Source: Ramlibacter sp. (GTDB taxonomy: Bacteria > Pseudomonadota > Gammaproteobacteria > Burkholderiales > Burkholderiaceae_C). Taken from it: a stretch of 32,478 bases of DNA. Below are positions 5,742 to 28,414 of the stretch, piece by piece; within the stretch, counting starts at the first letter, position 1; each line of letters begins with the position of its first letter. The translations under genes were made by a program, and so were the position numbers. The notes below the pieces were generated by a model. The model searched no databases and was not told the origin of the DNA. It saw only the letters and a program-made list of their open reading frames with translations. The stretch is from contig DATMBW010000446.1 of NCBI GenBank assembly GCA_035559095.1, positions 1 through 32,478 on the forward strand, in the 5' to 3' direction.

Positions 5742-5825
5742 GATGAAAAGCCCCCGCGCTTGCGATGTTCGTTGCCCCCCGGGACTCGGTCCCATGGCTC
5801 CAATTCGGCCGGGCGGGCACTGATG
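5742..5825 (+). repeat. Interspersed element copy A (hemX-hemY junction) with 26-aa bridging ORF 5743-5823
   Basis: Core AGCCCCCGCGCTTGCG...CGTTGCCCCCCGGG...GGCTCCA resembles the copies at ~20.3 kb and ~28.3 kb; flanked by GATG direct repeats at 5742 and 5822. Confidence 0.65.
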
Positions 5826-7076
5826 CGCGCCGCGCTCTGGCTCCTGGCCCTGTTCGGCGTGGCCGTCGCCATCGCGCTGTTCGCGGGCAACAACCAGGGC
5901 ACGGTCACCGTATTCTGGCCGCCCTACCGCGTGGACCTGTCACTGAACCTCGTGTTGCTGTTGCTGTTCGCGGCGTTCGTATTCCTGCACGCCGCGCTTG
6001 GCGCGCTGGCGGCGCTGTTCGACCTGCCGCGCCAGGCGTTGCGCTGGCGTTCGCTGCAGAAGGAGCGCGCCATGCACGGCTCGCTGCTCGATTCGCTCTC
6101 GCACTTGCTGGCCGGCCGTTTCATTCGTGCCCGCAAATCGGCCGAAGCCGCCCTCGGCCAGGAGAAATCGCTGGCCGGCGGCGGGCAGAGCCCGGCCAAC
6201 GCGGCGCAGGTGCGCACACTGGCGCATCTGCTGGCAGCGGAAAGCGCGCAGGCGCTGCAGGACCGGCCCGCGCGGGAAGAACACCTGAAACTGGCGCTGG
6301 AACAGGCGTCGTCGCGGGACGCGCAGGAAACGCATGAGGGTGCCTTGATGCGCGCGGCACGCTGGTCGCTGGACGATCGCGAGCCCCAGACCGCGATGGC
6401 GTGGCTCAGGGGCCTGCCGCAAGGCGCGGCTCGCCGCACCGTCGCGCTGCGGATGAAACTCAAGGCGGCGCGCCTGACCCGGCAGACCGCCGAAGCGCTC
6501 GAAACGGCGCGCTTGTTGTCCAAGCACCGGGCATTCTCGGCTACCGCGGCCGAGAGCCTCGTGCGGGGGCTGGCGATCGACCTGCTCAACGACGCGCACG
6601 ACGTGGCGCAACTGCAGCGCGCCTGGAGTTGCCTGGAGCCCGGCGAACGCCTGATGCCCGAGCTGGCGATCCACGCCGCGCAGCGGCTCACCACGCTCGG
6701 TGGCGATGCCCAGCTGGCGCGCGACTGGTTGCTGCCGGTGTGGGAACGCCAGGCGGAAATGGGCGAAAACCTGAAGGTGAAACTGGTTCGCGCGCTCGAA
6801 GCCGGTCTGGACAGCTTCGACGGCGCTTGGCTGGCCCGCATCGAAGCGGCGCAAAAAGCGAACCCACGCGAAGCCACTCTCCAATATCTCGCCGGCATGG
6901 CCTGCATGAAGCGCCAGCTCTGGGGCAAGGCGCAGCAGCTGATGAGCCAGGCGGCCATGGGACTGAAGGATGCGAAGCTGCACCGCAACGCCTGGCGCGC
7001 ACTGGCGCTGCTGGCCGAGGAGCGCGGCGACGATGAGGCCGCCGCCCAGGCCTGGAAGCGGGCGGCCAGCGAGTAG
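5823..7076 (+). CDS. hemY: HemY family TPR-like membrane protein
   Basis: N-terminal TM segments with NNQGTVTVFWPPYRVDLSLN, helical repeat body, QLWGKA motif; synteny. Start set at ATG 5823. Confidence 0.88.
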   Translation: MRAALWLLALFGVAVAIALFAGNNQGTVTVFWPPYRVDLSLNLVLLLLFAAFVFLHAALGALAALFDLPRQALRWRSLQKERAMHGSLLDSLSHLLAGRFIRARKSAEAALGQEKSLAGGGQSPANAAQVRTLAHLLAAESAQALQDRPAREEHLKLALEQASSRDAQETHEGALMRAARWSLDDREPQTAMAWLRGLPQGAARRTVALRMKLKAARLTRQTAEALETARLLSKHRAFSATAAESLVRGLAIDLLNDAHDVAQLQRAWSCLEPGERLMPELAIHAAQRLTTLGGDAQLARDWLLPVWERQAEMGENLKVKLVRALEAGLDSFDGAWLARIEAAQKANPREATLQYLAGMACMKRQLWGKAQQLMSQAAMGLKDAKLHRNAWRALALLAEERGDDEAAAQAWKRAASE

Positions 7077-7124
7077 GGCCCGTTCCCAGGCCGCGCCGCG
7101 CCGGCCAACTCGCGCCGGACTTTC

Positions 7125-10100
7125 TTATTGCAGCGGCAGGCTGCTCTGCTCGAACGGCAGTTTGAGCTCGCGCAAGTCGCGCCTTGTTTCGACCAGCACC
7201 AGCGGACCTTCGTCGATCACGATGGCCGGCGGCCGCTCGCGCGGCACGCGGACGGGCTTGGGTTCGGCCGCGATGGCCGCTTGCGCGGCTGCGATCTTCT
7301 GCGCGTCCGAATTGACCCATTGCAGGCCGGAAGTTTCGGCCACCTGAAGCAAATCCTCGATCGGCAGTTCGAAGGGCTGGACCTTGGGCAGGCCGCGGGC
7401 GGCCGGCGCGACTTCGATCTCGGGCTTTGGTGACGGCGCAGCCGCGGCGTTCGCGACCGCGACTTCCGCCTCCTCGCTCACGAAGCCGGTCGGGTAACGC
7501 GGGCGCTCGCTGCGCTCCGGCGCCATCTCGTCGGCCGGCGCCACCGGCGCGCCTGTGTCGTCCTCGCGCGGCTGGCGATCGCCACGCTCGCGCCGGTCGC
7601 GGCCGTAGCGGTCGCGCGAGCGGCGGTCGCGCCGCTCGTCGCCCTCCTGTGCTTCGGGAGTCCGCGCATCCTGGTGGGTGTGTGACTCGAGAACGGCGTC
7701 GGTCGCGGGGGCCTGCTGGTCGCCCATCTCTGCTACCACCCCCACCGACGAGGCCGCGCCGGCCAGCGCTGCGGCTTCGGCAGTTTCACCGGCCACCGAC
7801 GGCTCGCGCGGGCCGCGCTCGCCGCGCCGGTCGCCACGGCGGCCGTCCCCGCGCTCGCGCCTGCCGTCGCCGCGTTCCCCGCGTTCGCCGCGCGGCGGAC
7901 GCTCCTGGCGCTGTTCCACGCCCTCGGCGCCGACTTGCAGGTTTGCGGTCGTGCCTTCGACGCCGCGTTGCTCGCCGTCACGGCGCTCGCGTTGTCCCTG
8001 GCGTTCGCCCCGGCCTTCACCGCGGCCTTCACGCGGCTCACGCTCGCCCCGGCCGTCGCCGCGTTCCTGCCGATCACCACGGCGCTGCTCGCCGTCGCGC
8101 TGGCGGCCGACTTCGGCAGTGCGCTGTTCGCCATCGCGGCCACGCCCGCCTTCCGGACGCGGCTGGCCATCGGCAGCCTCGGCGCGCGCTTCCCGTTCGC
8201 GGCGCTGCTCGCCGTCGCGACCACGCCCTTCACCGCGGCGTCCGTCACGGCGCTCGCCGTCTCGCCCACGCCCGCCGCGACGCCCTTCACCGCGGCCGTC
8301 GCCGCGGCCTTCACCGCGGGCTTCGCGCTTGTCTTCCTTCCTGGCTTCGACCACCGGCGCGGGCGCGGCCACAGGTGCCGGGGCAACCCCGAACAGGCCC
8401 TTGATCCACGCCATGAAGCCATGCTCGGCCGGGGCCGGCGTCGGTGCCGGCTTCGGTGCCGGCGCCCGTGCGGCGGCGGGCTTGGCCGGCTCGGCCTTGG
8501 CCGGGGCCGGGGCCGGCCGGACCTCCGCGATCGGGGCCGGCGCATCCGGCAGCACACCTTTGATCACGGGCTCCTGCTTGTTGCTGCGTTCGTGTGTGCG
8601 CCGCGTGACCGTGGTCGGATCCTCGATCTCCTCGGCCATGTGGTAGCTGGCCTGCAAGTTGTCCAGGCGCGGGTCGTCGTGCTTGAGCCGTTCGAGCCGG
8701 TAGTTGGGCGTCTCCAGGGTCTTGTTGGGCACCATGATCACGTTCAGGCGCTGCTTGAGCTCGATCTTCGCGATTTCGGTGCGTTTTTCGTTGAGCAGGA
8801 ACGACGCCACTTCCACCGGCACTTGCACGTGCACGGCGGCCGTGCCGTCCTTCATCGATTCTTCCTGGATGATCCGCAGGATCTGCAGCGCCGAGCTTTC
8901 CGTGTCGCGGATGTGGCCGTGGCCGCCGCAGCGCGGGCAGGGAATGGACGCCCCCTCGGATAGCGCCGGGCGCAGGCGCTGGCGGCTCATTTCCATCAGG
9001 CCGAATTTGCTGATGGTGCCGAATTGCACGCGTGCGCGGTCCTGGCGCAGCGCGTCGCGCAGGCGGTTTTCCACCTCGCGGCGGTTGCGCGATTCTTCCA
9101 TGTCGATGAAATCGATGACGATCAGGCCGCCCAGGTCGCGCAGGCGCATCTGGCGCGCCACCTCGTCGGCGGCTTCCAGGTTGGTGCGGGTGGCGGTTTC
9201 CTCGATGTCGCCGCCCTTGATGGCGCGGGCCGAGTTCACGTCGATCGACACGAGCGCTTCGGTGTGGTCGATCACGACCACGCCGCCGGACGGCAGCTTG
9301 ACTTCACGCGCGTAGGCCGATTCGATCTGGTGCTCGATCTGGAAGCGCGAGAACAGCGGCGCATCGTCGCGGTAGCGCTTGACGCGAGCGGCGTGTTCGG
9401 GCATCACGTGCGCCATGAACTGCTGGGCCTGCTCGTAGATGTCGTCGGTGTCGATCAGGATGTCGCCGATGTCATGATTGAAGTAGTCGCGGATCGCGCG
9501 GATCACCAGCGAGGACTCCTGGTAGATCAGGAAGGCGCCCTTGCCGCCCTTGGCCGCGCCGTCGATCGCGTTCCACAGCTTGAGCAGGTAGTTCAGGTCC
9601 CACTGCAGCTCCGGCGCGCTGCGGCCGATGCCGGCCGTGCGGGCGATGATGGACATGCCGTTCGGATACTCGAGCTGGTCCATCGCTTCCTTGAGCTCGG
9701 CCCGGTCATCGCCCTCGATTCGGCGCGAAACGCCACCGCCACGCGGGTTGTTGGGCATCAGCACCACATAACGCCCGGCCAGCGAAACGAACGTGGTAAG
9801 GGCCGCGCCCTTGTTGCCGCGCTCTTCCTTTTCGACCTGGACCAGCAGCTCCTGGCCTTCCTTGATGACGTCGTTGATACGGGCCTGCGAGACCGACACC
9901 CCCTGGGTGAAATACGACTTGGAAATTTCCTTGAACGGCAAAAAGCCGTGGCGGTCTTCGCCGTAATCGACGAAGCAGGCCTCCAGCGAAGGCTCGACCC
10001 GCGTCACCACGGCTTTGTAGATATTGCCCTTGCGCTGTTCGCGCCCTTCGATTTCGATTTCATAGTCGAGGAGTTTTTGTCCATCGACGATTGCCAGCCG

Positions 10101-10142
10101 GCGTTCTTCCGCCTGCGTGGCGTTGATCAGCATGCGCTTCAT
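7125..10142 (-). CDS. rne: Ribonuclease E
   Basis: MKRMLINAT start after AAGGAAGG RBS; S1 domain; [23 protein letters not shown]; Zn-link CPRC; amphipathic [11 protein letters not shown]; long R/E/G-rich disordered C-terminal half. Confidence 0.98.
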
Positions 10143-10683
10143 GGCGTCACCTTCCTTCTTCTTGATTTGTTGCGACAGGGCGGATTGCATGCAATCGCGA
10201 CCTGTCCCCCCAAGTCAAACGAGACCCCTGCGGGTCAACGATGCCTGGCAGACGCCTTGAAACGAACGGAACGGGCCGGCAAGCGGCGGCTGCGGAGGGC
10301 TAACTCAGCAGGCGCGGCAAGGGCGTTTGGATGGGGGCGAAGAACGCGCCACCATAGCGGCGGCACTGAGGCGCTGCAGATCGTGCAGCGTATCCGGTCC
10401 GCACGGGACGGACCGTCGGCGATGCAAAGCCCTCAGCCGGGGCTATGAGCCACCGCCAGCAGGCCATGAAGATCGCCATCAACACAGGAGTTCTCGCTTT
10501 GATCCGTCCGCAAGCGTCGGGCTCGCGGACTGGTATTCCGTATCAGTGTTTCAAAGTGCCGGCTTGGCCGCGACCTTGGCGGGCCATTGCCGGCATCTGG
10601 CTGGCAATCTGCGCGCGAGGAGTCACGGTGGCATCGACCTTCCAGCGTGGCCGGTGGCAGTGCGTGGACTAAACTCCAAGGCA

Positions 10684-10696
10684 AATCAACCACTTA
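10684..10696 (+). promoter_or_regulatory. Putative IHF binding site
   Basis: AATCAACCACTTA matches WATCAANNNNTTR exactly, in the rne/rluC divergent region. Confidence 0.5.
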
Positions 10697-10709
10697 CAGC
10701 GTAACGCTA

Positions 10710-11723
10710 GTGAAACAGATTATAGGGGGCGCAGCGTCCGGCGCAAGCGGGCAGGCAAAATTAGTCGAGGTGGACGAGGATTCCGCCGGCCAGCGGCTCG
10801 ACAACTTTCTCATCCGCCGGCTCAAGGGCGTGCCGAAAACCCATGTCTACCGCATCATTCGCAGTGGCGAAGTCCGGGTGAACAAGGGCCGCGCCGCGGC
10901 CGACCTGCGGGTCGAGGCGGGCGACGTCGTGCGCTTGCCGCCGGTGCGCATTTCCGAAAAAGTCGCGGAAAAACTGGACAAGCCGGCCCCGGCGCGCGAG
11001 TTTCCGATTCTTTTCGAGGACGAGCACCTGATCGCCGTCGACAAGCCGGCCGGAGTGGCGGTGCACGGGGGCAGCGGCGTCAGTTTCGGGCTGATCGAAC
11101 AGTTGCGCCGGGCACGGCCCGGCGTGAAATTCCTGGAACTGGTGCACCGGCTGGACCGCGAAACCTCCGGCATCCTGCTGATCGCGAAGAAGCGCTCGGC
11201 CCTGACCCGGCTGCAGGACCAGTTCCGCGAGCGCGAAACGGGCAAGACGTACCTGGCCCTGGTGGCAGGGGCCTGGCCGGCCAACCGCAAGGTGATCGAC
11301 GTGCCGCTGCACAAGTACCTGCAAGCCGACGGCGAGCGCCGCGTCAAGGTGGTGTCCAAGGACGACCCGGACGGAATGCGGTCGATTACCCTGGTGAAGG
11401 TGAAGGATTTGATTCCGGCGAAGGGGGGCATTCGGGCTTCCGGCTTTACGCTCGTCGAAGTCACCATCAAGACCGGCCGGACGCACCAGATCCGGGTCCA
11501 TCTCGCGTCGCAGGGGCATCCGATCGCGGGCGACGACAAGTATGGCGACTTCGAGCTCAACAAGGCGCTGCAAAAGCAGGGGCTCAAGCGAATGTACCTG
11601 CACGCGTGGCGGTTACAGTTCAACCATCCCGCCAGCGGCGAGCGCATCGAATTGCTCGCCGCGCTGCCCCCGGAACTGAAGAAGTTTGCCGACCATGCCC
11701 CGCCTGCGCCCCCGCCAGTTTGA
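10710..11723 (+). CDS. rluC: RluA/RluC family 23S rRNA pseudouridine synthase
   Basis: S4 domain (GQRLDNFL...YRIIRSGEVRVN), KPAGVAVHGG, catalytic HRLDRETSG, TGRTHQIRVH; divergent from rne as usual. GTG start at 10710 inferred. Confidence 0.94.
   Translation: MKQIIGGAASGASGQAKLVEVDEDSAGQRLDNFLIRRLKGVPKTHVYRIIRSGEVRVNKGRAAADLRVEAGDVVRLPPVRISEKVAEKLDKPAPAREFPILFEDEHLIAVDKPAGVAVHGGSGVSFGLIEQLRRARPGVKFLELVHRLDRETSGILLIAKKRSALTRLQDQFRERETGKTYLALVAGAWPANRKVIDVPLHKYLQADGERRVKVVSKDDPDGMRSITLVKVKDLIPAKGGIRASGFTLVEVTIKTGRTHQIRVHLASQGHPIAGDDKYGDFELNKALQKQGLKRMYLHAWRLQFNHPASGERIELLAALPPELKKFADHAPPAPPPV
10719..10746 (-). promoter_or_regulatory. Putative sigma70 promoter for rne
   Basis: Minus strand TTGCGC-N16-TATAAT pointing toward rne; overlaps the first rluC codons. 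Confidence 0.55.
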
Positions 11724-12363
11724 CCTGATCGCCTTCGACTGGGACGGCACGCTGTTCGACTCCACACGGATCATCGTCCGCTGCATCCAGCGCGCCGTGG
11801 TGGACGTCGGCGGCAACATGCCATCGGACAAGGCCGCGGCCTACGTGATCGGCCTGGGCCTGATGCAGGCGCTGGCCCATGCGGCGCCCGATGTGCCGAA
11901 GGAGAAATACCCTCAGCTCGGCGCGCGCTACCGGCACCATTACATCGCTCACCAGGACGACCTGAGCCTGTTCGAGGGCGTGCTGCCGCTGCTGGATGAA
12001 CTCAAGGCGCGCCACCACTGGCTGGCGGTGGCTACGGGAAAGTCGCGCCGCGGACTGGACGAAGCGCTTGAATCGGTCCAGCTCAAGGGCAGGTTCGATG
12101 GCTCGCGCACGGCCGACGAAACGGCCAGCAAGCCGCATCCCCGCATGCTCCAGGAGCTGATGCGCGAATTCGGCGCCGACCCGGGTCGCACGCTGATGAT
12201 CGGCGACACGACGCACGACCTGCAAATGGCGGTGAACGCGGGCTGCGCCGCGGTCGGTGTGGCATACGGTGCCCACGAGCCTTCGCAATTCGAAGCGCTG
12301 AAGCCTGTTTTTGTGGCGCGCTCGGTACCAGAACTGCATCACTGGCTGCTGAAAAACGCCTGA
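11695..12363 (+). CDS. HAD-IA family hydrolase (phosphoglycolate phosphatase-like)
   Basis: Motif I FDWDGTL, motif II ATGK, SKPHP and MIGDTTHD. Confidence 0.9.
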   Translation: MPRLRPRQFDLIAFDWDGTLFDSTRIIVRCIQRAVVDVGGNMPSDKAAAYVIGLGLMQALAHAAPDVPKEKYPQLGARYRHHYIAHQDDLSLFEGVLPLLDELKARHHWLAVATGKSRRGLDEALESVQLKGRFDGSRTADETASKPHPRMLQELMREFGADPGRTLMIGDTTHDLQMAVNAGCAAVGVAYGAHEPSQFEALKPVFVARSVPELHHWLLKNA

Positions 12364-12371
12364 GCACGGAA

Positions 12372-12737
12372 ATGCCCCAAGCGATCGCCCTGTGCAAGTC
12401 GGCCGACCTGGCGGACGGCGGCGAGGCGGTGCCCTTCGACGTGGTCGTCGGCGGCCAGGCCTGCCGTGCGTTCGCGATCCGTTTCGAAGGACGGGTGCAT
12501 GCCTACCTCAACCGCTGCACGCATGTGGCGATGGAACTGGATTGGCTGCCGAATCGCTTCTTCGACGACAGCGGCCGCTGGCTGGTTTGCGGCAGCCACG
12601 GCGCCCTCTACCGGCCCGACACCGGCGCCTGCGCGGCCGGCCCTTGCCGCGCCGGCCTGGTGAAAATCGCCCTGAGCGAACTGAACGGGGTGGTCCACTG
12701 GCATACTGACCACAATCTCAAGCCTGCCGAGTCATAG
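12372..12737 (+). CDS. Rieske [2Fe-2S] ferredoxin-like protein
   Basis: NRCTH ... CGSHGALY (CxH/CxxH ligands) and AGPC. Confidence 0.88.
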   Translation: MPQAIALCKSADLADGGEAVPFDVVVGGQACRAFAIRFEGRVHAYLNRCTHVAMELDWLPNRFFDDSGRWLVCGSHGALYRPDTGACAAGPCRAGLVKIALSELNGVVHWHTDHNLKPAES

Positions 12738-12742
12738 AACAC

Positions 12743-13780
12743 ATGAACGAATCGCAACCGCCCGACCCCACGGGCCCTGAATCCAGCTCTTCGGCGCCTG
12801 GCGCCGCGCCGGCGCGCCCCGCGGCCCAGGCCGAAACCGACCGGCTTGCGGCCGCCCCGGGGTGGGAGCGTGCCACGTTCGAAAAGCTCATGTTCGCGAC
12901 GCTGGAGGAACAGCGCACGGCCCGCCGGTGGCGCAGCTTCATCCGGCTTGCCTGGTTGGCTTTCTTCGTCGTCCTGCTTTGGGCACTGATGTATCGCGGC
13001 TCGCCCGCTATGGACAAGACCGCGCCGCACACGGCGGTGATCGAAATCAAGGGCGAAATCGCCTCGGGTGCGGATGCCAGCGCGGAAAACGTCGTGGCCG
13101 CGATGCGATCGGCGTTCGAGGACACGGGTTCCCAGGCGGTGGTGCTCCTGATCAACTCGCCCGGTGGCAGCCCGGTGCAGGCCGGCATCATCAACAACGA
13201 GATCAAGCGCCTGAGAATCAAGCACAAGAAGCCCGTGTACGCGGTGGTGGAGGAGGCCTGTGCCTCGGCGGCGTACTACATCGCCGCGGCCACCGACCGC
13301 ATCTTCGTGGACAAGGCCAGCATCGTCGGCAGTATCGGCGTGCTGATGGACGGTTTCGGCTTCACCGGCCTGATGGACAAGCTCGGTGTCGAGCGGCGGC
13401 TGATGACGGCCGGCGACAACAAGGGCTTTCTCGATCCGTTCAGCCCGCAGACGGAAAAGCATCGCGTCTTTGCGCAATCCATGCTCGATCAGGTGCACCG
13501 GCAGTTCATCGACGCGGTCAAAGCCGGCCGCGGCAAGCGACTGAAGGAATCGCCGGAGCTGTTCAGTGGCTTGTTCTGGACCGGGCAGCAGTCGGTGGAA
13601 CTGGGTTTGGCCGACCAGTTGGGCAGCCTGGACTTCGTCGCGCGCGAAGTGGTGAAGGCCGAGGAACTGGTGGACTACACGCGCCGTGAAAACGTCGCGG
13701 AACGCCTGGCCAAGAAATTCGGCGCCGCCCTGGGCGAAGGCGCGATACGGGCGCTCAAGACGGTGCCGGTCCTGCGCTGA
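12743..13780 (+). CDS. S49 family peptidase (SppA-like)
   Basis: N-terminal TM; INSPGGS, CASAAYYIA, SIVGSIGV, FSGLFWTG and GLAD motifs. Confidence 0.92.
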   Translation: MNESQPPDPTGPESSSSAPGAAPARPAAQAETDRLAAAPGWERATFEKLMFATLEEQRTARRWRSFIRLAWLAFFVVLLWALMYRGSPAMDKTAPHTAVIEIKGEIASGADASAENVVAAMRSAFEDTGSQAVVLLINSPGGSPVQAGIINNEIKRLRIKHKKPVYAVVEEACASAAYYIAAATDRIFVDKASIVGSIGVLMDGFGFTGLMDKLGVERRLMTAGDNKGFLDPFSPQTEKHRVFAQSMLDQVHRQFIDAVKAGRGKRLKESPELFSGLFWTGQQSVELGLADQLGSLDFVAREVVKAEELVDYTRRENVAERLAKKFGAALGEGAIRALKTVPVLR

Positions 13781-13788
13781 CGGCTGCC

Positions 13789-14553
13789 CTAGCGCCCGAT
13801 CGCGAACACGGCGGGGACATCGCTCTTCACGGGCGCGTCTTGCTGCTTCCAGAGCTTGACGGACTGGCTGCGGGCGAGGGCCCGCGGTAATGTGAGGCCG
13901 CTGCCCACAGCCAGGCGCGTCGCGGGCTGCAAGGTGTTGACCAGCGCTTCCCACAAAGCCGGGTTGCGATACGGTGTCTCGATGAAGAGCTGGGCCTGGC
14001 CGCTGCGCAGGGCCAGCGATTCAAGCTCGCGAATGCGCTGGGCCCGCTGCGCCGGGTCCTGCGGCAAGTAGCCCACGAAGGCGAAATTCTGGCCATTGAG
14101 CCCGCTCGCGGCCAGGGCCAGCAGCAGCGAGACCGGCCCAACGAGGGGAACGACCGGTACGCCCAGGGCGTGCGCGGCGCGGACCACCGATGAGCCGGGG
14201 TCCGCGACGGCCGGCATGCCGGCCTCGCTGACCAGCCCGATGTCATGGCCTTGTTGCGCCGGCGCCAGCAGCGCGCTCGCGTCGAAGCCGCCTTCATGGT
14301 CGCCCTTCTTGTGCACTTCCCTGGGCAGCTCGGTGATCTGCTGCTCGCGCAAGGGCAGCGCCAGCGGATGCACTTCGCCGATACGCTTGAGCAAGGCGCG
14401 CGCCGACTTGGCGTTCTCGCAAATCCAGTGCGTCAGCGCGGCGGCGGCTGCCAGGGTGCCGGCGGGCATCACGTCCGTGAGCGGTGCCTGCACCGCACAG
14501 CCGAAGTCCAGCGGCGCCGGAACGAGATACAGCTTGCCGGGCGCCGCCGCCAT
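13789..14553 (-). CDS. Tetrapyrrole-methylase-fold SAM-dependent methyltransferase (RsmI-like)
   Basis: GKLYLVP, VSEAGMPAVADPG, PLVGPVS, FAFVGYLP, FIETPYRN; ATG 14553 overlaps the maf stop (TGATG). Confidence 0.85.
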   Translation of the reverse strand: MAAAPGKLYLVPAPLDFGCAVQAPLTDVMPAGTLAAAAALTHWICENAKSARALLKRIGEVHPLALPLREQQITELPREVHKKGDHEGGFDASALLAPAQQGHDIGLVSEAGMPAVADPGSSVVRAAHALGVPVVPLVGPVSLLLALAASGLNGQNFAFVGYLPQDPAQRAQRIRELESLALRSGQAQLFIETPYRNPALWEALVNTLQPATRLAVGSGLTLPRALARSQSVKLWKQQDAPVKSDVPAVFAIGR

Positions 14554-15158: not shown

Positions 15159-15183
15159 GGCCCGATTCTCTTACACTGGTTCA

Positions 15184-15729
15184 ATGAGCAGAGAGTTCGT
15201 GGCGCGCCGCCTGGATGTGAGGAGCTTCGCCGAAGAGGGTGCCGCCCTGAGCGGCCAGCAACCGGTGCAATTGCATCACCGGCTGATGGCGGAGACCCAG
15301 GAACGCGGCGCCGCGTCGCCCGTCACCTGGTCGGTCCGAGGCGAAATGCGCAACCCGCGCCACGTGCATCCGGAAATCTGGCTGCACCTGAAGGCGCAGG
15401 CCGTCCTGGCGCTGACCTGCCAGCGCTGCCTCGGCCCGGTGGACGTGCCGATCGCGCTGGATCGATCCTTTCGTTTCGTCGCCGATGAAGACATGGCCGC
15501 GGCGCAGGACGAGCAGTCCGAGGAGGACGTGCTTGCCCTGAGCCGCAGTTTCGACCTGGTCGAACTGGTCGAGGACGAATTGCTGATGGAGCTGCCCTTG
15601 GCGCCGCGGCACGAAAGCTGCCCCGGTCCGGTGAAACTGGCGCTGGCCGACGAGGACTTCGAGGCTGCCGAGGCACCGCGCGAGAACCCCTTCGCGATGC
15701 TGGGCAAGTTCAAGGCCCGCAAGACCTAG
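15184..15729 (+). CDS. yceD: YceD/DUF177 family protein (large ribosomal subunit accumulation)
   Basis: CQRCL, LVEDELLMELPLAPRH, C-terminal NPFA; upstream of rpmF. Confidence 0.9.
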   Translation: MSREFVARRLDVRSFAEEGAALSGQQPVQLHHRLMAETQERGAASPVTWSVRGEMRNPRHVHPEIWLHLKAQAVLALTCQRCLGPVDVPIALDRSFRFVADEDMAAAQDEQSEEDVLALSRSFDLVELVEDELLMELPLAPRHESCPGPVKLALADEDFEAAEAPRENPFAMLGKFKARKT

Positions 15730-19929: not shown

Positions 19930-19940
19930 CGACGAGGTAA

Positions 19941-20272
<332 letters not shown>

Positions 20273-20273
<1 letters not shown>

Positions 20274-20365
20274 TGAGAACCGCCGGACCGCTCCAAGGTG
20301 CGAGGGCCCGCTTGGGGGGCAGCGCCGCGGCCCTGGCCGCAAGCGTGGGGGCTCGATTCCTATGA
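20273..20365 (-). repeat. Interspersed element copy B (acpP-fabF junction, inverted) with 30-aa bridging ORF on + strand
   Basis: Reverse complement reads GAGCCCCCACGCTTGCG...CGCTGCCCCCCAAGCGGG...CCTTGGAGCGGTCCGGCG; flanked by ATGA direct repeats at 20273 and 20362. Confidence 0.65.
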
Positions 20366-21609
20366 CCCGCCGCCGCGTCGTCGTAACCGGTCTGGGCTGC
20401 ATCAGCCCCGTGGGCAACACGGTGGCCGAATCCTGGGCCAACCTGCTTGCCGGCAAACCCGGCATCGACCTGATCACCCGGTTCGATGCCGGCTCTTTTG
20501 CCTGCAAGTTCGCCGGCGAGGTGAAGGGGTTCAGCATCGGGGACTATATCCCCGAGAAGGAAGCCCGCCACATGGACCGTTTCATCCACCTGGGCCTGGC
20601 AGCGGCCTGCCAGGCGGTGGCGGACAGCGGCTTGCCCACGGGCGAGGCGCTCGGGGACGAGCTGGCCACGCGCATCGGCTGCAATATCGGATCGGGCATC
20701 GGCGGGCTGCCGCTGATCGAGGACACGCACTCCGAACTGGTCGCTCGCGGCGCGCGCCGTATCTCCCCGTTCTTTGTGCCGGCCTCGATCATCAACATGA
20801 TCTCCGGGCATGTTTCGATCAAGTACGGTTTCAAGGGCCCCAATATTTCGATCGTCACGGCCTGCACGACCGGCCTGCACGCCATCGGCCTGTCGGCGCG
20901 CATGATCGAAAGCGGCGATGCCGACGTCATGGTCGCCGGTGGCGCGGAATCGTGCGTATCTCCCCTGGGCATCGGCGGCTTCGCGGCGGCGCGCGCCCTG
21001 TCGGTGCGCAACGACGACCCCAAGGCGGCTTCACGGCCATGGGACAAGGACCGGGACGGCTTCGTCCTGGGCGAGGGCGGCGGCGTGCTGGTGCTGGAAG
21101 AGTACGAATACGCCAAGGCGCGAGGCGCCAGGATCTATGCCGAAGTGGCCGGGTTCGGCATGAGCGCCGATGCGTACCACATGACGGCCCCCGACGTGGA
21201 CGGCCCGCGCCGCTCGATGATCAATGCGCTGCGCAACGCCGGCATCAATGCCGACCAGGTCAACTACCTCAACGCACACGGCACCTCCACGCCACTGGGC
21301 GACCTGAACGAGACCAATGCGGTCAAGGCCGCGTTCGGAGATGCGGCCAGGAACCTGGTCGTCAACTCGACCAAGTCGATGACGGGCCACCTGCTGGGCG
21401 GCGCCGGCGGCATCGAATCGGTCTTTACCGTACTGGCCGTCCACCAGCAGAAGAGCCCGCCCACGATCAACATCTTCAACCAGGATCCCGAGTGCGACCT
21501 GGACTACTGCGCCAATACGGCGCGGGACATGCGCATCGACGTCGCCATGAAAAACAACTTCGGTTTCGGCGGCACCAATGGCACCCTCGTTTTCAAGCGC
21601 CTCGAATAG
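20362..21609 (+). CDS. fabF: 3-oxoacyl-ACP synthase II
   Basis: [15 protein letters not shown] (Cys), AHGTST and GHLLGGAG (His-His), NNFGFGGTN. Confidence 0.97.
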
Positions 21610-21650
21610 TCCTTCTCAGCGATTTCAAGCACTCTTGAAGCCGGGCCGTC

Positions 21651-22109
21651 ATGCATAACGCCCCACCGGTGAGCTACCCGTTGGGGCGTTCGCGTTTTTC
21701 GGCCGGCCTGCTGCTGCTCGTGTGGCTGCTGGGCGGCGCCGCCACAGCCTTGTGGTGGTTGCAGACGCAGTCGACCGGCTGGCGGCACGGCGCGGCCTGG
21801 CTGTTGCTTGCCATCGTTGGCGCCTTTGCGGCATGGCACTGGTGGCACGGCCCCCGCGGCATCCTGGAGTGGGACGGGGAGAGCTGGAGCTGTTCGCTCG
21901 AGCAGGCCGTGCACACCGGCGCGCTCGAGGTCAGCCTCGACTTGCAGCAATGGCTGCTGTTGCGCTGGCGGTCCGGCGATGTGTCACGCTGGTTCTGGCT
22001 GGAACGCGCGGCCCGAGCCGAACGCTGGGATGATTTGCGTCGTGCGGTATATTCCCGCGCCAGACCCGAAGCGCCGCCCGAAGCGCGCCGCTCCACGGCG
22101 AAACCATGA
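21651..22109 (+). CDS. Uncharacterised Trp-rich membrane protein (possibly YgfX-like)
   Basis: 152 aa, two N-terminal hydrophobic helices, C-terminal WDDLRRAVY; fills the fabF-rpoE gap and overlaps the rpoE start (ATGA). Confidence 0.7.
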   Translation: MHNAPPVSYPLGRSRFSAGLLLLVWLLGGAATALWWLQTQSTGWRHGAAWLLLAIVGAFAAWHWWHGPRGILEWDGESWSCSLEQAVHTGALEVSLDLQQWLLLRWRSGDVSRWFWLERAARAERWDDLRRAVYSRARPEAPPEARRSTAKP

Positions 22110-22741
22110 CAAAGACGCCTCACCCCGCCCCTCCCGCGACCGGCGACACCGACCTGATGCTGGTGGAACGGACGGTGGCGGGCGACCAGAAGGCGTACGA
22201 GCTGCTGGTCCTCAAATACCAGCGCCGGATCGAGCGGCTGATTGGCCGGATGGTCCGGGACACCGACCTGGTCGAGGACATAGCGCAGGAGACTTTCATC
22301 CGCGCCTACCGTGCGCTGGCCCAGTTCCGGGGTGAAGCCCAGTTCTATACCTGGCTGTACCGGATCGCCGTGAATACGGCGAAGAAGGCCCTGGGCGACC
22401 TCAAGCGCGACCCCCTGGTCTCGGAAAACTCGATGCGTGGAGGCGACGAGGAAGATGAAACTTCCGCGGTGGAGAACGAACTAACCACCGCGGAAACGCC
22501 AGAAACGGTGCTTGCTGCCAAGGAAATCGCGGCCGCGGTCAACTCGGCCATGGACGCCTTGCCAGAGGAACTGCGCCAGGCGGTGACGCTGCGCGAGATT
22601 GAGGGGCTGAGCTACGAAGAGATCGCGGAAGTGATGAATTGCCCGATCGGCACCGTGCGGTCCCGGATTTTCCGGGCGCGCGAGGCTATTTCCATCAAGA
22701 TCAAGCCCCTGCTGGAAAACCAGTCGGGCAAGCGCTGGTGA
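22106..22741 (+). CDS. rpoE: ECF sigma factor RpoE
   Basis: DIAQETFIRAYRAL, FYTWLYRIAVNTAK, LREIEGLSYEEIA...CPIGTVRSRIFRARE. Confidence 0.97.
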   Translation: MTKTPHPAPPATGDTDLMLVERTVAGDQKAYELLVLKYQRRIERLIGRMVRDTDLVEDIAQETFIRAYRALAQFRGEAQFYTWLYRIAVNTAKKALGDLKRDPLVSENSMRGGDEEDETSAVENELTTAETPETVLAAKEIAAAVNSAMDALPEELRQAVTLREIEGLSYEEIAEVMNCPIGTVRSRIFRAREAISIKIKPLLENQSGKRW

Positions 22742-22765
22742 CGCGCGATGCGGCGAGGTGATGTT

Positions 22766-23362
22766 ATGGACAACATGCAAAAGCACGAACTCATTTCGGC
22801 AATGGCGGACGGGCAGTTGCGCGGCGAGGCGTTCGCGCGGGGAGTTGAAGTTGCGGCCGGCGACCCCGTGGCGCTGGAGGCCTGGCATACCTACCATCTG
22901 ATCGGCGACGTGTTGCGATCCGGCGAATTCACGGCCGGCACCGTCCCCGCAGTCTTTCTCAGCCGCTTGCAAGTGCGTTTGCGGCAGGAGCAGCGCCTCG
23001 TCGACCCTCCGCGGGCCGTGGCTGGTGGGCCCCAGACGGTCGTGCCGCCATCCTCCGCGCAGCGCGCCGCGGCCAACGACTCCAGTTTCCGCTGGAAGCT
23101 GGTGGCCGGCTTTGCGTCGCTCGCCGCGCTGGCCGCCGTCGGCTGGACCGCCTGGGGAGCTATCTCCGGCGTAACCGATCAAGCCCAACTGGCGGCTGTC
23201 CAACGCGGCACGGAATCCGGCGGCAACGAGCGCGGCGTCATGATCCGCGATCCCCGGTTGGATGAATTGCTGGCTGCGCACCGCCAGCTTGGCAGCGCCT
23301 CGGCGTTGCAAGCGCCCGCCGGCTTCCTTCGAAATGCCACCTTCGAAGGACCTGCCCGCTGA
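22766..23362 (+). CDS. rseA: Anti-sigma-E factor RseA/MucA
   Basis: ISAMADGQL, WHTYHLIGDVLR, one TM helix, LLAAHRQ; follows rpoE. Confidence 0.9.
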   Translation: MDNMQKHELISAMADGQLRGEAFARGVEVAAGDPVALEAWHTYHLIGDVLRSGEFTAGTVPAVFLSRLQVRLRQEQRLVDPPRAVAGGPQTVVPPSSAQRAAANDSSFRWKLVAGFASLAALAAVGWTAWGAISGVTDQAQLAAVQRGTESGGNERGVMIRDPRLDELLAAHRQLGSASALQAPAGFLRNATFEGPAR

Positions 23363-23378
23363 GGCGGCCGGCGAAGGC

Positions 23379-24428
23379 ATGGGATACAAGGTCACGCCAG
23401 GAAAGTTTCTTGCAGGCTGCGGCATCGCCGCTCTTTGTGCCTTTTGCATGGCCGGGCTGGCCGCGGCCCAGGTCCCGGCCCCGGCCCCTCGGAGCCAGCA
23501 GGCGGCGCCTGGCCAGGCCAGACCCGAACGCAGCGTCAGCGAATGGCTGGCGCGCATGCACGAGGCTTCGCGCCTGCGCAGTTACGCCGGCACCTTCGTC
23601 GTGTCCTCGGGTGCAGGCCTGTCGAGCGCGCGCATCTGGCATGCGTGCGACGGCCAGCAGCAACTCGAGCGGGTGGAATCGTTGACCGGTGCACCACGTT
23701 CGACTTTCCGCCGCAACGAACAGGTGGTCACTTTCCTGCCCGAGAGCCGCGTAGTGCGGATCGACAGGCGCGAGTCGCTGGGATTGTTCCCCGACCTGCT
23801 CAAGTCGGCCGAATCCTCCATCCCCGACTTCTATACCGCGCGGCGGTTGGGCGGGGACCGCGTCGCCGGTTTCGAAGCCGACGTGGTCGAGCTCGCGGCC
23901 AGGGACAACCTTCGCTTCGGTTATCGCATCTGGATTGAAAAGCGCATCGGGCTGGTGATCAAGCTCCAGACCATGGATGGCGCGGGCAACGTGCTGGAGC
24001 AGGCCGCTTTTTCCGAGCTGCAACTGGACGCTCCCGTGCGCATCGACCAGCTCAGCCGGATGATGGCCGCCCCTGAAGGCTGGCGCGTCGAAAAGGCGGA
24101 GGCGGTCAAGACCAGCGCGGAGGCCGAAGGCTGGCACCTGAAGTCGGCCGTGGCCGGATTCAAGCCGATCAACTGCTACAAGCGGCCGCTGGCCGGGCCG
24201 CCGGCGCCCGAGGGAACTCTCCAGTGGATCTTCTCGGACGGCTTGGCGGCGGTCTCGCTCTTTCTCGAAGGCTATGACCGCCAGCGGCACGTCCAGGAAG
24301 GTGTGTTCGCAAGCGGCGCCACGCACACGCTCACGCGCCGCGTCCAGGAGTGGTGGCTCACCGCTGTGGGCGAGGTGCCGCCGCAGACCCTGAAGGCATT
24401 CGCGCAGAGCCTTGAGCGCCGAAGATAA
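23379..24428 (+). CDS. rseB: RseB/MucB periplasmic regulator
   Basis: Signal peptide; SYAGTFV, RVAG, RFGYRIW, FSDGLAAVSLF, TAVGEVP. Confidence 0.9.
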   Translation: MGYKVTPGKFLAGCGIAALCAFCMAGLAAAQVPAPAPRSQQAAPGQARPERSVSEWLARMHEASRLRSYAGTFVVSSGAGLSSARIWHACDGQQQLERVESLTGAPRSTFRRNEQVVTFLPESRVVRIDRRESLGLFPDLLKSAESSIPDFYTARRLGGDRVAGFEADVVELAARDNLRFGYRIWIEKRIGLVIKLQTMDGAGNVLEQAAFSELQLDAPVRIDQLSRMMAAPEGWRVEKAEAVKTSAEAEGWHLKSAVAGFKPINCYKRPLAGPPAPEGTLQWIFSDGLAAVSLFLEGYDRQRHVQEGVFASGATHTLTRRVQEWWLTAVGEVPPQTLKAFAQSLERRR

Positions 24429-24475
24429 GCCCCCAGATTCCCGCGAATGTGCGATGGTTCCCTGGTTGACGCTGC

Positions 24476-24502
24476 GAACCATTTGACCGCTTTGTGTTCT
24501 CA
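24476..24502 (+). promoter_or_regulatory. Putative sigmaE-dependent promoter for degP
   Basis: GAACCA-N16-TCTCA resembles the RpoE consensus GAACTT-N16/17-TC(T/A)(G/A)A, 27 bp upstream of the degP ATG. Confidence 0.6.
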
Positions 24503-24529
24503 GCTTTATCTCTGAAGTGAAAGGTCGAT

Positions 24530-25996
24530 ATGGTGAAAGTCGATTGGAAAAAAGTGCGTGCCTACGGGGTGGCCATCGCCCTGGCGGTATCGGGCACGGT
24601 GGCGTTGATGCCCGCCAGGCCCGTGGTGGCGCAGGCCAGGTCGTTGCCGGATTTCACGGACCTGGTCGAGCAGGTCGGCCCGTCGGTGGTCAACATTCGC
24701 ACGATCGAACGCACTCGCAGCGGCAGTTCCGCCCCGGGAGGGATGGACGAGGAGATGCAGGAATTCTTCCGCCGGTTCTTCGGCCAGCCCCTGCCCGGCG
24801 TTCCTCGGCCGTCCCCTCGTCCCAATCGCCCGCAACCCGATGAGGAGCAGCCGCGCGGCGTCGGCTCCGGATTCATCCTGACCACCGACGGGTTCGTCAT
24901 GACCAACGCGCACGTGGTGGACGGAGCCGACGAGGTGCTCGTGACGCTGACCGACAAGCGCGAGTTCAAGGCCCGGATCGTGGGCTTCGACAAGCGCACC
25001 GACGTGGCCGTGGTCAAGATCGAAGCCGCGGGTCTGCCGGCGGTGAAGGTCGGCGACGTCAATCGGCTGCGCGTGGGCGAGTGGGTCATGGCCATCGGTT
25101 CGCCGTTCGGCCTGGAAAACACCGTGACCGCCGGGATTGTCAGCGCCAAGGGCCGCGACACCGGCGACTACCTGCCTTTCATCCAGACCGACGTGGCGAT
25201 CAATCCCGGCAATTCCGGCGGCCCGCTCATCAACATGCGCGGCGAGGTGGTCGGTATCAACAGCCAGATCTATTCGCGCTCGGGCGGCTTCATGGGCATC
25301 TCGTTCGCCATCCCCATGGATGAGGCGATCCGCATCAGCGACCAGCTGCGTGCCTCGGGCCGGGTGTCGCGCGGCCGCATCGGCGTGCAGATCGACCAGG
25401 TCACCAAGGACGTGGCCGAATCGATCGGGCTGGGCAAGGCGCAAGGCGCTCTGGTGCGAAGCGTTGAAAGCGGATCGCCCGCCGAGAAAGCCGGCGTCGA
25501 GGCGGGCGACATCATCGTGCGTTTCGACGGCAAGATGATCGAGAAGGCCTCCGACCTGCCGCGCATGGTGGGCAGCACAAAGCCGGGCACGCGCAGCAGC
25601 ATGACGGTGTTCCGTCGCGGCGGCTCCAAGGACCTCGGCGTCACGATCGCCGAGTTCGAACCCGAGAAGCCCGTGCGGCGCACCTCGGATAAGGAAGAAA
25701 AGCCCAAGGGTTCTCCCGCGGCGCAATCGGTGGGCCTGTCGGTGAGCGAGCTGACGGATGCACAGAGGAAGGAGCTCAAGCTCAAAGGCGGCGTGAAGGT
25801 CGAGGCTGTGGCCGATAGCGCCGCACGCGCGGGCATTCGCGAAGGCGACATCATCGTGGCCATCGGCAATACGGAGATCGGCAGCGTCAAGGAGTTCGAC
25901 GCGGTGGTGGCCAAGGTCGACAAGACCAAGCCGATCCCGGTGCTGCTGCGCCGCGGCGAATTGGCCACTTACGCGCTGATCCGTCCCGCCCGCTAA
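24530..25996 (+). CDS. DegP/MucD (Do family) serine endoprotease with two PDZ domains
   Basis: Signal peptide; GSGFI, TNAHVV (His), TDVAV (Asp), AINPGNSGGPL (Ser); two PDZ domains. Confidence 0.96.
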   Translation: MVKVDWKKVRAYGVAIALAVSGTVALMPARPVVAQARSLPDFTDLVEQVGPSVVNIRTIERTRSGSSAPGGMDEEMQEFFRRFFGQPLPGVPRPSPRPNRPQPDEEQPRGVGSGFILTTDGFVMTNAHVVDGADEVLVTLTDKREFKARIVGFDKRTDVAVVKIEAAGLPAVKVGDVNRLRVGEWVMAIGSPFGLENTVTAGIVSAKGRDTGDYLPFIQTDVAINPGNSGGPLINMRGEVVGINSQIYSRSGGFMGISFAIPMDEAIRISDQLRASGRVSRGRIGVQIDQVTKDVAESIGLGKAQGALVRSVESGSPAEKAGVEAGDIIVRFDGKMIEKASDLPRMVGSTKPGTRSSMTVFRRGGSKDLGVTIAEFEPEKPVRRTSDKEEKPKGSPAAQSVGLSVSELTDAQRKELKLKGGVKVEAVADSAARAGIREGDIIVAIGNTEIGSVKEFDAVVAKVDKTKPIPVLLRRGELATYALIRPAR

Positions 25997-26015
25997 GGCT
26001 CAGCCGCTTTTGCGC

Positions 26016-26050
26016 AAAGCCCCAGCCCGTGGTCGGGTTTGGGGCTTTTT
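26016..26050 (+). terminator. Intrinsic terminator after degP
   Basis: AAAGCCCCAGCCCG-tggt-CGGGTTTGGGGCTTT hairpin ending in a T run. Confidence 0.75.
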
Positions 26051-26236
26051 GGTTCGAGTCACCGAAAAAAAACGGGCGCCCAGAAATATTTTTCAGACAT
26101 CCGAGGGCTTGTTTAAGTTTGTATTTACTAACTTTATGGCGAGGCTATTTACATTTTTGGATAGAATCGCGAGACCTCATCGGCGAATAAGGGCATATCG
26201 AAAAGTGCCGAAACCACCATACGAGATGGAACGCCA

Positions 26237-26315
26237 TGGTGCACATCCGATCCACAGATCGCCCACAAGTTGTCCCAGCGCTTGCCCCCTAATTTTGTTG
26301 ATAAGTTGTGCATAA
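26237..26315. promoter_or_regulatory. DnaA-box array
   Basis: Minus-strand TTATGCACA (26307-26315, consensus TTATNCACA) and TTATCAACA (26296-26304, one mismatch); degenerate plus-strand boxes at 26237, 26248, 26259 and 26270; 11-bp spacing within each group. Confidence 0.6.
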
Positions 26316-26430
26316 CATTCATGTTGCTGCCCTGCAACGGCCCGGTTTGCCCGTCGGTTCGACTGTACGCCCTGGGCTTTTTGCCTACAATGAAGCTCCA
26401 ACTATCGCAGTTGCCATAGATTGTTGGTTT

Positions 26431-26467
26431 AGGGCGCGTCATCACTCGACGCGCCCTTTTTTCTTTT
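26431..26467 (+). terminator. Terminator-like hairpin in lepA upstream region
   Basis: Perfect 10-bp stem AGGGCGCGTC/GACGCGCCCT, 7-nt loop, then TTTTTCTTTT. Confidence 0.65.
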
Positions 26468-26507
26468 CCGGCGCCGTTTGAATTCAATCACTTAAGCGTT
26501 CCCGTTG

Positions 26508-28319
26508 ATGAATCACATCAGAAACTTCTCGATCATCGCGCACATCGATCACGGAAAATCGACGCTCGCGGACCGCTTGATCCAGCGATGCGGCGGCCTG
26601 TCGGATCGGGAGATGGAAGAGCAGGTGCTCGACTCGATGGACCTCGAACGCGAACGTGGGATAACCATCAAGGCACAGACCGCTTCGCTGCATTACTCGG
26701 CACGCGATGGGCAGGTCTACAACCTCAATCTGATCGACACGCCGGGCCATGTGGACTTCTCGTACGAGGTCTCCCGATCGTTGTCCGCCTGCGAAGGCGC
26801 GCTGCTTGTGGTCGACGCGAGCCAGGGCGTGGAAGCGCAGACCGTCGCCAACTGCTACACCGCACTGGACCTGGGTGTCGAGGTCGTGCCGGTACTCAAC
26901 AAGATGGATCTGCCCCAGGCCGATCCCGAGAACGCGAAAGTGGAAATCGAGGACGTGATCGGCATCGACGCCGAGCATGCGATCCCCTGCTCGGCCAAGA
27001 CCGGCATGGGCATCGAAGACATCCTCGAGGCGATCGTGGCGCGCATCCCGGCGCCGCGCGGCAACCCCGGGGGTCCGCTGCGCGCGATGATCATCGACAG
27101 CTGGTTCGACAGCTACGTCGGCGTCGTCATGCTCGTGCGCGTGGTGGACGGGCGCCTGGTCAAGGGCGAACGGATCAAGCTCATGGCCACCGGCGCCACC
27201 TACGACGCCGACAACCTGGGGGTCTTCACCCCCGCCAACGAAGCGCGCGGATCGCTGGAGGCGGGGGAGGTCGGCTACATCATCGCCGGCATCAAGGAAC
27301 TGCAGGCCGCCAAGGTCGGCGATACGGTCACGCTGATCAAGCCGGGTACCGGCGGTGCCGCCTTCACCGCCACCGAGCCCCTGCCGGGCTTCAAGGAAAT
27401 CCAGCCGCAGGTTTTCGCCGGTCTGTATCCGACGGAAGCCAATCAGTACGACTCGCTGCGCGACGCCCTTGAAAAACTCAAGCTCAACGACGCGTCGCTG
27501 CATTACGAGCCGGAAGTCAGCCAGGCGCTGGGTTTTGGCTTTCGCTGCGGCTTCCTCGGACTGCTGCACATGGAAATCGTGCAGGAACGCCTGGAGCGCG
27601 AATTCGACCAGGACCTGATCACCACGGCTCCGAGCGTGGTGTACCAGGTGCTCAAGGCCGACGGCGAAATGCTGATGGTGGAGAACCCATCCAAAATTCC
27701 GGACCAGGGCAAGGTCCTGGAGATCCGCGAGCCCATCGTCACGGTGCATCTGTACATGCCGCAGGAATACGTGGGCCCGGTGATGACGCTGGCCAACCAG
27801 AAACGCGGCGTGCAGCTGAACATGGCCTATCACGGCAAGCAGGTGATGCTGACCTACGAGCTGCCGTTGGGCGAAATCGTGCTGGACTTCTTCGACAAGC
27901 TCAAGTCAGTCAGCCGCGGCTATGCCTCGATGGATTACACGTTCAAGGAGTTCCGGGCTTCCGACGTCGTGAAGGTCGACATCCTGCTCAACGGCGAAAA
28001 AGTGGACGCGCTTTCCATCATCGTGCACCGAAGCCAGTCGCAGTACCGTGGCCGCGCCGTGGTGTCGAAGATGCGCGAAATCATCAGCCGGCAGATGTTC
28101 GACGTGGCGATCCAGGCAGCCATCGGTTCCAACATCATTGCCCGCGAGACCATCAAGGCGCTGCGCAAGAACGTGCTGGCAAAATGCTACGGCGGCGACA
28201 TCACCCGCAAGCGCAAGCTCCTCGAAAAACAGAAGGCAGGCAAGAAAAGAATGAAGCAGATCGGTTCGGTCGAAGTCCCCCAGGAAGCGTTTCTCGCGAT
28301 CTTGCAGGTGGAGGAATGA
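26508..28319 (+). CDS. lepA: Elongation factor 4 (LepA)
   Basis: [64 protein letters not shown]. Confidence 0.99.
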
Positions 28320-28414
28320 GTCCCCGCGTCCACGGTCGGTCGCTGCCCCCCGGGGGAGCCGGGTGCCGCGGCTCCAGGCCTGCCCGCGCAGGATTGGACG
28401 GGGCGGCATCATGA
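28316..28414 (+). repeat. Interspersed element copy C (lepA-lepB junction) with 32-aa bridging ORF
   Basis: GAGTCCCCGCGT...TCGCTGCCCCCCGGGGG...GGCTCCA; flanked by ATGA direct repeats at 28316 and 28411. Confidence 0.65.

Follow-up and report, generated by a model that had tools for sequence, protein, structure and literature searches.

Betaproteobacterial repeat elements at operon joints probably preserve translational coupling through bridging mini-ORFs

A 32,478-nucleotide stretch of Ramlibacter sp. DNA (contig DATMBW010000446.1; hereafter the window, from the genome that we call G000) carries three short inserts between neighbouring genes, at the hemX–hemY, acpP–fabF and lepA–lepB junctions, and each insert is spanned by a mini open reading frame (ORF) that leads from the upstream stop codon to the downstream start codon. 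The genes were assigned with NCBIfam models (the hemX match lies below its family cut-off). An earlier note, made from the letters alone, had read the inserts as copies of one mobile repeat, inverted at acpP–fabF, that sits at operon junctions and lets ribosomes pass through the bridging ORF. The inserts, the GATG, ATGA and ATGA repeats around them at spacings of 80, 89 and 95 nt, and the uninterrupted ORFs of 26, 30 and 32 codons whose TGA overlaps the downstream ATG were all confirmed at the positions given in Table 1. The acpP–fabF insert was present in contigs of three other sequencing runs (X2, X4 and X8, with 1, 1 and 13 differences) and is therefore not an assembly artefact. No empty allele of the same strain was found in the sequencing-run contigs, in which alleles that skip the inserts came only from other organisms.

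Judged by its conserved blocks, the repeat is the Betaproteobacterial repeat element (BRE) of Hot et al. (2011; PMC3110155); in the available parts of that work, BRE is a family of approximately 90 bp with the same three blocks, as given in List S1, whose Bordetella sequences match the acpP–fabF copy on the + strand when read by eye (the published strand is the reverse of what we call forward). The Comamonadaceae repeats that the earlier note had mentioned are real and are BRE. Membership of the three inserts was examined with a hidden Markov model (HMM) built from 21 other copies in G000. This leave-out model matched the inserts in the window with E-values of 7e-11 (acpP–fabF), 6e-4 (lepA–lepB) and 8e-3 (hemX–hemY), and the two weaker copies reached 0.065 and 0.94, respectively, when the search was genome-wide; a 316-copy model, likewise free of window copies, gave 2e-10 for acpP–fabF and 0.49 and 0.65 for the other two. 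On the leave-out E-values, the acpP–fabF insert is a clear member of the family and the other two are decayed or composite, so that the proposed kinship of the three stands firmly for one copy and tentatively, by weak matches, for two. The lepA–lepB copy is 80–84% identical over ~87 nt to three other G000 copies (C141, C357 and C550), all of which have its second palindrome, and intact BREs occupy both the lepA–lepB and the hemX–hemY junctions in relatives (at the latter in L064 and L075). Rfam covariance models gave no match in the window at the gathering score; the sole sub-threshold match, to dauA (E 0.34), was offset from the element.

Table 1 Positions of the inserts, bridging ORFs and flanking stop codons in the window
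Feature	Position	Strand	Remarks
Decayed BRE-derived insert, hemX–hemY	5742..5825	+	Element in mRNA sense; leave-out HMM, weak
Full-length BRE, acpP–fabF	20274..20354	-	Inverted relative to mRNA; HMM and by-eye match to List S1
Decayed composite BRE, lepA–lepB	28318..28410	+	5′ BRE module and nested second palindrome; HMM
Bridge mini-ORF, hemX–hemY	5743..5823	+	26 codons; ATG 1 nt past hemX TAG; TGA overlaps hemY ATG (TGATG)
Bridge mini-ORF, acpP–fabF	20273..20365	+	30 codons; ATG overlaps acpP TGA (TGATG); TGA overlaps fabF ATG (ATGA)
Bridge mini-ORF, lepA–lepB	28316..28414	+	32 codons; ATGA overlap at both ends
hemX stop codon	5739..5741	+	hemY start at 5823
acpP stop codon	20271..20273	+	fabF start at 20362
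lepA stop codon	28317..28319	+	lepB start at 28411

Among the checks that the earlier note had proposed were a profile scan of the genome and its relatives, spacer lengths modulo 3, double stop/start overlaps, empty orthologous sites and accompanying transposase genes. Iterated HMM searches recovered 27 copies in G000 and none in a reversed-genome control, and a strict motif was present in 23 of 24 same-genus genomes and in none of the 16 genomes drawn from other families in the order. Collection scans found the motif in at least 121 genome stretches, 66 phage-contig stretches and at least 121 metagenome stretches; the 80 genome matches listed belong mostly to Polaromonas, Hydrogenophaga, Ramlibacter, Rhodoferax, Variovorax and Alcaligenaceae, and Alcaligenaceae-labelled copies of the same architecture were among those retrieved (L133, L140, L150 and L166). 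Hosts were mainly Burkholderiales, and tandem and in-frame intragenic copies were seen. Phage contigs of Mu- and P2-like type (L242–L307) also carry BRE, within structural operons, and phages could transfer it between hosts.

The copies concentrate inside operons. From 340 arrays, 26 at edges and 83 of unclear setting were dropped from the counts (three arrays with mis-called flanks, L308, L424 and L418, were kept as extensions, and L502 from G112 was left out). The 118 genus arrays comprised 103 co-directional ones (95 at junctions and 8 in-frame intragenic), 3 convergent, 10 unclear and 2 edge, and 99 of 140 arrays from G000 and the genus started no more than 15 nt from a co-directional stop, a zone that holds 9.8% of intergenic positions. 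Within G000, the 32 BRE arrays were placed quite differently from the 144 arrays of a CGTC-like repeat: 22 versus 78 were co-directional, 0 versus 37 convergent, 3 versus 2 divergent, 5 versus 7 intragenic and 2 versus 20 at edges, and 14 of the 22 co-directional BRE arrays were bridged against 16 of the 78 (p 3e-4 and 1e-3 for the two contrasts). Neighbours of BRE include ribosomal-protein, NADH dehydrogenase and phage tail genes.

We scored a junction as bridged when an ATG or GTG lay within −4 to +10 of the upstream stop and the ORF that it opened ended within −4 to +10 of the in-frame downstream start; the null was obtained by in silico deletion of 1–2 nt inside the element. Bridging exceeded this frameshift null in every set: 60 of 95 junctions in the genus (null 0.11), 8/14 in G000 itself (0.07), 21/52 in the GTDB set (0.13), 22/31 on phage contigs (0.07) and 31/57 in metagenomes (0.10). 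Repeat-free co-directional gaps of G000 were bridged in 34 of 297 or 61 of 662 cases. When one copy was counted per orthologous site, approximately 80 of 146 sites were bridged overall and approximately 51 of 83 in G000 and the genus, the latter differing from the 34/297 background with a Fisher p of 2e-19 (kin are not independent). Strict double overlaps occurred at 32/95 genus junctions and 5/14 of the junction copies in G000. Bridging irrespective of element orientation and beyond chance, as the earlier note had claimed, was thus borne out against both the null and the background gaps.

Orthologous junctions in relatives record the gain and decay of such inserts. At lepA–lepB, 57 genomes divided evenly among gaps of ≤0 nt (19), 1–18 nt (19) and 19–151 nt (19), 38 genomes thus having gaps below 19 nt, and all 19 long spacers were bridged. 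In 18 of the 19 the gap was 1 mod 3. BRE was recognisable in six of the long spacers (four forward, one reverse and one weak composite match); the bridge frame persists where the repeat can no longer be recognised, which suggests that selection acts on translation. In a tree of lepA–lepB (two of the 57 rows were too short to be included), filled rows were interleaved with empty ones, and deep forks were weak. Long spacers were likewise bridged at acpP–fabF (9/11) and hemX–hemY (6/7), in sets consisting of the 30 best BLAST loci of 61 each. More broadly, 97 orthologous junctions were recovered for 147 queried from G000; 28 had gaps of −7 to −1 nt and many others held different repeats. This presence and absence at orthologous sites, together with the intra-operon concentration, agrees with the mobile junction repeat proposed earlier. 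Other short inserts also bridge acpP–fabF in relatives (L005–L009), and in L006 and L008 a second repeat type is stacked before a 41-nt insert, giving two coupled mini-ORFs.

Read in the forward sense, BRE has a fixed C-rich block, followed by two hairpins, the first variable and the second (C/G) invariant, and then by an imperfect terminal stem whose bulged core is conserved. The arms of this stem covary (mean Watson–Crick run 5.5, versus 1.8 after permutation), with changes on both sides in 9–19 of 61 sequences at three stem pairs and in 10 at a core pair. The variable hairpin is 11–20 nt long in all but one of the 212 units, and in 96 of the 212 the loop sequence of the published strand is C-GNA-G, N being any of the four bases. 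C-GNA-G forms a stable DNA mini-hairpin, and these loops hint at a folded single-stranded DNA stage. Whole-element folding z-scores were weak (−0.3 to −1.0) and picked neither a strand nor a molecule. Polaromonas copies have a different, longer 3′ stem. A second palindrome is nested in some BRE or BRE-like elements (the lepA–lepB copy of the window and C141, C355, C357, C490, C502, C531 and C581 in G000), and G000 composites of 154–163 nt keep the bridge frame. The element ends are TG-rich, so that ATG or GTG codons arise readily at both of them.

In forward copies, a Shine–Dalgarno (SD)-type GGAG often lies within the terminal stem, just before the downstream ATG. It follows the terminal core in 33 of 73 forward bridged copies, 6 of 36 forward unbridged copies, none of 9 forward intragenic copies and 1 of 54 reverse copies, and a complementary arm lies upstream in 31 of the 33 SD-bearing forward bridges. 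This layout is that of the RNA-unfolding model of coupling as presented in the available passages of PMC12548453. None of the 27 reverse bridges has such an SD; their G-run might form wobble pairs with the anti-SD.

Given these comparisons of sequences and junctions, BRE is a non-coding multi-hairpin repeat whose copies are gained and lost at operon stop/start joints. Selection probably keeps those copies in which the bridging frame carries ribosomes on from the stop of one gene to the start of the next, and translational coupling would thereby survive the insertion. A ribosome translating the bridge would melt the terminal SD stem and re-initiate downstream, much like a natural bicistronic design. 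The element might move as folded single-stranded DNA with an enzyme acting in trans, and insertion may usually replace a few target bases rather than duplicate them.

Several observations weigh against this explanation. The GGAG arm is absent from all three window copies. N-terminal extensions of the downstream gene occurred at 12/95 genus junctions against a null of 0.32, so that the bridge excess comes partly at their cost; bridges and extensions together account for 72/95 (76%), against ~43% in the null. Neither was found at 23/95 genus and 23/52 GTDB junctions, and among the genus cases are copies placed after a stop, with the former spacer still separating them from the next gene. Polaromonas-rich loci gave 9 bridges at 18 junctions, with 23 of 48 arrays unclassifiable. 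Bridges use one core frame in 60/84 forward and 24/27 reverse copies, a bias that could be built into the element and not selected at each site. Some arrays are intragenic and in frame (8/103 in the genus, 17/69 in the GTDB set and 21/124 in metagenomes). Gene starts were taken from the flanking frames called by a dicodon model trained on G000, not from annotation. Selection alone does not explain why BRE avoids large or convergent gaps. Generality is further limited by Bordetella, in which 4 of 13 loci are convergent and the copies have T-rich flanks according to Table 3 and the available text of PMC3110155.

At intragenic sites, BRE adds ~28–30 residues in frame to housekeeping enzymes (L399, L344, L385, L349, L357, L397, L427, L374 and C187 of G000), most of these insertions being read in the two frames that the bridges also use. 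Rickettsia palindromic elements likewise insert in frame within genes.

A further possibility, which we regard as tentative, is that an enzyme not yet described actively aims BRE at operon joints, through a translation- or transcription-linked route, and that BRE has evolved into a portable cassette for coupling in both directions. Such a cassette would offer a start codon at either end, a stop-poor body and an SD held in a hairpin and exposed only by a relaying ribosome. If so, decayed copies would persist permanently as translated mini-ORFs in essential operons and in the late operons of phages, and would repeatedly supply new small genes and retune protein ratios.

No mobilising enzyme was found in a search that covered several candidates. 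A RAYT-like Y1 transposase gene (Y1_Tnp) is present as a single copy in 59 of 61 genus genomes, but BRE did not flank it in the loci examined: no copy lay within 1.5 kb in 30 genus loci, 3 more loci from high-copy genomes had no BRE match, and G077 has 56 BRE copies with no Y1_Tnp match (the genome may be incomplete). DUF559 genes, found in 28 of 61 genus genomes, are flanked by a repeat of their own, and none of 30 loci held BRE. Y1, GIY-YIG and IS110 loci from five high-copy genomes also showed no BRE (44 loci). Conversely, tblastn searches with four enzyme sets (Y1, DUF559, GIY-YIG and IS110) against 468 BRE loci found no enzyme, with positive controls recovered; two matches of the DUF559 set (415 and 244 aa, longer than the domain) were rejected as a long other-frame ORF of L435. 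Pfam searches with 149 neighbouring ORFs, a manual choice among the 252 short cluster representatives into which 600 ORFs had been reduced, revealed no transposase or mobile nuclease, and no enzyme was recognised by eye in the intervals between paired copies (20 rows, ~17 distinct).

Other repeats were seen around these enzymes. A Y1 transposase gene at L105:1365–2154 (C88 in G000) has a short duplicated motif upstream and, in G000, a related one downstream, with no link to BRE. In the 12 DUF559 loci that were read (among L428–L448), the gene lies between inverted C/G-rich repeats at apparently one junction, in either orientation. Stand-alone GIY-YIG genes (~100 aa) at L586:1380–1900 and L588:1380–1900 are flanked on both sides by CGTC-like palindromes of the repetitive extragenic palindrome (REP) type, which makes them a candidate mobiliser for this family (144 arrays in G000); to our knowledge, the CGTC-like family has been described as having no dedicated transposase. 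In L587, a different palindrome surrounds the GIY-YIG gene.

A programmed insertion of the type known from the mycobacterial interspersed repetitive unit (MIRU) would also place ORFs across junctions, and we consider it unlikely for BRE. Here (A/G/T)TGA overlaps would be targeted and four bases duplicated, so that the bridge would follow from insertion chemistry and a fixed element length; the earlier note had similarly taken a 4-bp, ATG-containing target duplication as the source of both ATG and TGA. The lepA–lepB copy fits, with ATGA on both flanks and ATGA overlaps in empty relatives, and the strict double overlaps and strong frame bias described above point the same way. The clearest repeat excess beyond the ATG is at position −1 before it, where 56% of 27 reverse copies match against 29% when permuted (one of 40 tests). 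Apart from this position, direct-repeat matches were not clearly above permutation (three others reached nominal p of 0.01–0.04 among the 40), the A/G of the start codon matched no more often than the null, and the four-base 'duplication' is mostly the two start codons themselves. Two Polaromonas genomes that are 91–97% alike allow filled and empty sites to be compared: 25 sites yielded 21 pairs, nine of them with an empty partner (seven at stops and two in-frame intragenic). One of the nine was clean, a GTGA overlap having become GTGA...ATGA around a 236-nt insert that is crossed by an open bridge of 79 codons; only TGA is repeated there. The other eight showed a replaced spacer, a few replaced bases or a changed stop, and the stop differed in 4 of 7 junction pairs. 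Deletion of the insert and one repeat had been expected to restore a tight junction. This holds at lepA–lepB (ATGA or TGATG overlaps in relatives) and roughly at hemX–hemY (a gap of 1 in L065), but not at acpP–fabF, at which none of 29 relatives has the predicted overlap and 19 have a 6–10-nt spacer; the copy therefore more likely entered right after the stop. The variable hairpin, at 11–20 nt in nearly all units, argues against a fixed length, and intragenic copies also begin with ATG-like ends. Flank logos showed variable ends with only a TG/CA tendency. Identity as a miniature inverted-repeat transposable element was rejected on the same grounds, as BRE has no terminal inverted repeats and no consistent target-site duplication.

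It is rather improbable that BRE acts purely as a REP-like element on mRNA, through processing, segmental stability or ribosome stalling 3′ of stops, with the mini-ORFs as a by-product of composition and TG-rich ends. Composition does explain the open frames: BRE cores leave 4.93 of 6 frames open, versus 4.81 in shuffles, so the scarcity of stops in the GC-rich core is a matter of composition alone, and an open frame by itself is uninformative. Composition does not, however, set where the ORF ends, and the frameshift nulls lower bridging to 7–13%. Copies begin within 15 nt of stops, and ribosome stalling by E. coli REPs occurs at this same spacing (cited in the available passages of PMC5082802); a Bordetella BRE locus gives small RNAs, and some copies keep an old downstream spacer and form no bridge. 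Against an action at the RNA level alone, the decayed lepA–lepB spacers keep the frame after the hairpins have gone, the SD-type arm is nearly restricted to copies in which a start follows it, and the element works in both orientations. Shared ancestry with ascertainment, in which the counts would be inflated because relatives have a small number of old insertions in common by descent, is very improbable and largely refuted: the genus genomes are all kin, 29 of 146 site clusters have two or more copies, deep lepA–lepB branches are weak and the acpP and hemX sets are best-BLAST selections, but 117 of the 146 clusters are singletons, the rate holds at one copy per cluster, phage and metagenome sets replicate it, and the 57-genome lepA–lepB set has both orientations and filled rows among empty ones.

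Two other features of the window were recorded. An inverted repeat with 45-nt arms at 31376–31490 (era–recO) belongs to another dispersed family, with similar copies in G000 (C7, C284, C509 and C489); at a metagenome locus (L638), a recO-like gene has BRE copies on either side. Low-complexity repeats with a 12-nt period at 7800–8330 lie in the C-terminal part of RNase E (rne, − strand), as is ordinary for a disordered region.

If BRE does preserve coupling in this way, the family gains a mode of life, and MIRU-like coupling would reach a second phylum and both orientations. The gain and decay at lepA–lepB would serve as a natural experiment on selection for coupling in essential operons, and would bear on RNA unfolding versus re-initiation. 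The same process would explain spurious N-terminal extensions and ORFs of 25–35 codons in Burkholderiales and their phages.

MIRU ORFs are described as having a single direction. Among known systems, REP/REPIN–RAYT elements resemble BRE in their imperfect hairpins, conserved bulge, covarying stems, tandem arrays, position 3′ of stops and persistence within lineages (available passages of PMC6006769 and PMC8266576). Unlike them, BRE has no GTAG/GTGG tetranucleotide at the hairpin foot in its consensus and alignment, is not adjacent to the single-copy Y1 transposase of the genus and avoids convergent gaps. In integrons, a hairpin-forming recombination element between genes stops ribosomes from passing, and a short ORF across it (over attC sites, or ORF-11 of attI1) restores termination–reinitiation (available passages of PMC8876359); attC, however, belongs to gene cassettes moved by IntI, whereas BRE carries no gene and no recombinase was found for it. 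BRE as published forms tandem arrays and has intragenic copies and hosts in Alcaligenaceae and Comamonadaceae, as here. The available passages of PMC3110155 give no function or mechanism, the terms coupling, start codon and stop codon are absent from its main text, and the junction bias, bridge ORFs, SD-bearing arm and phage copies of the present analysis were not found in those passages. The published BRE literature that we found dates from 2011 and assigns no function, and we found no report of bridging or coupling for BRE; subscription papers and the rest of the BRE supplement may hold more. The closest parallel is MIRU, which inserts at start codons, couples through an internal ORF at −4 and affects expression little (PMC12548453, available passages), with tetranucleotide direct repeats and overlaps with the adjacent genes (PMC3184786, likewise in part). 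At the level of sequence, BRE is like MIRU in being short, GC-rich and non-autonomous, in occurring in polycistronic operons and in having an internal ORF coupled to the flanking genes. BRE is not known to be related to MIRU in sequence. It differs in mostly lacking the tetranucleotide direct repeats that mark filled MIRU sites, in belonging to a different phylum from the mycobacteria, in bridging in both orientations and in often bringing its own paired SD. The idea of an insert that preserves coupling is thus already known from mycobacterial MIRUs; the new point is that BRE, too, probably works in this way, and does so in both orientations.

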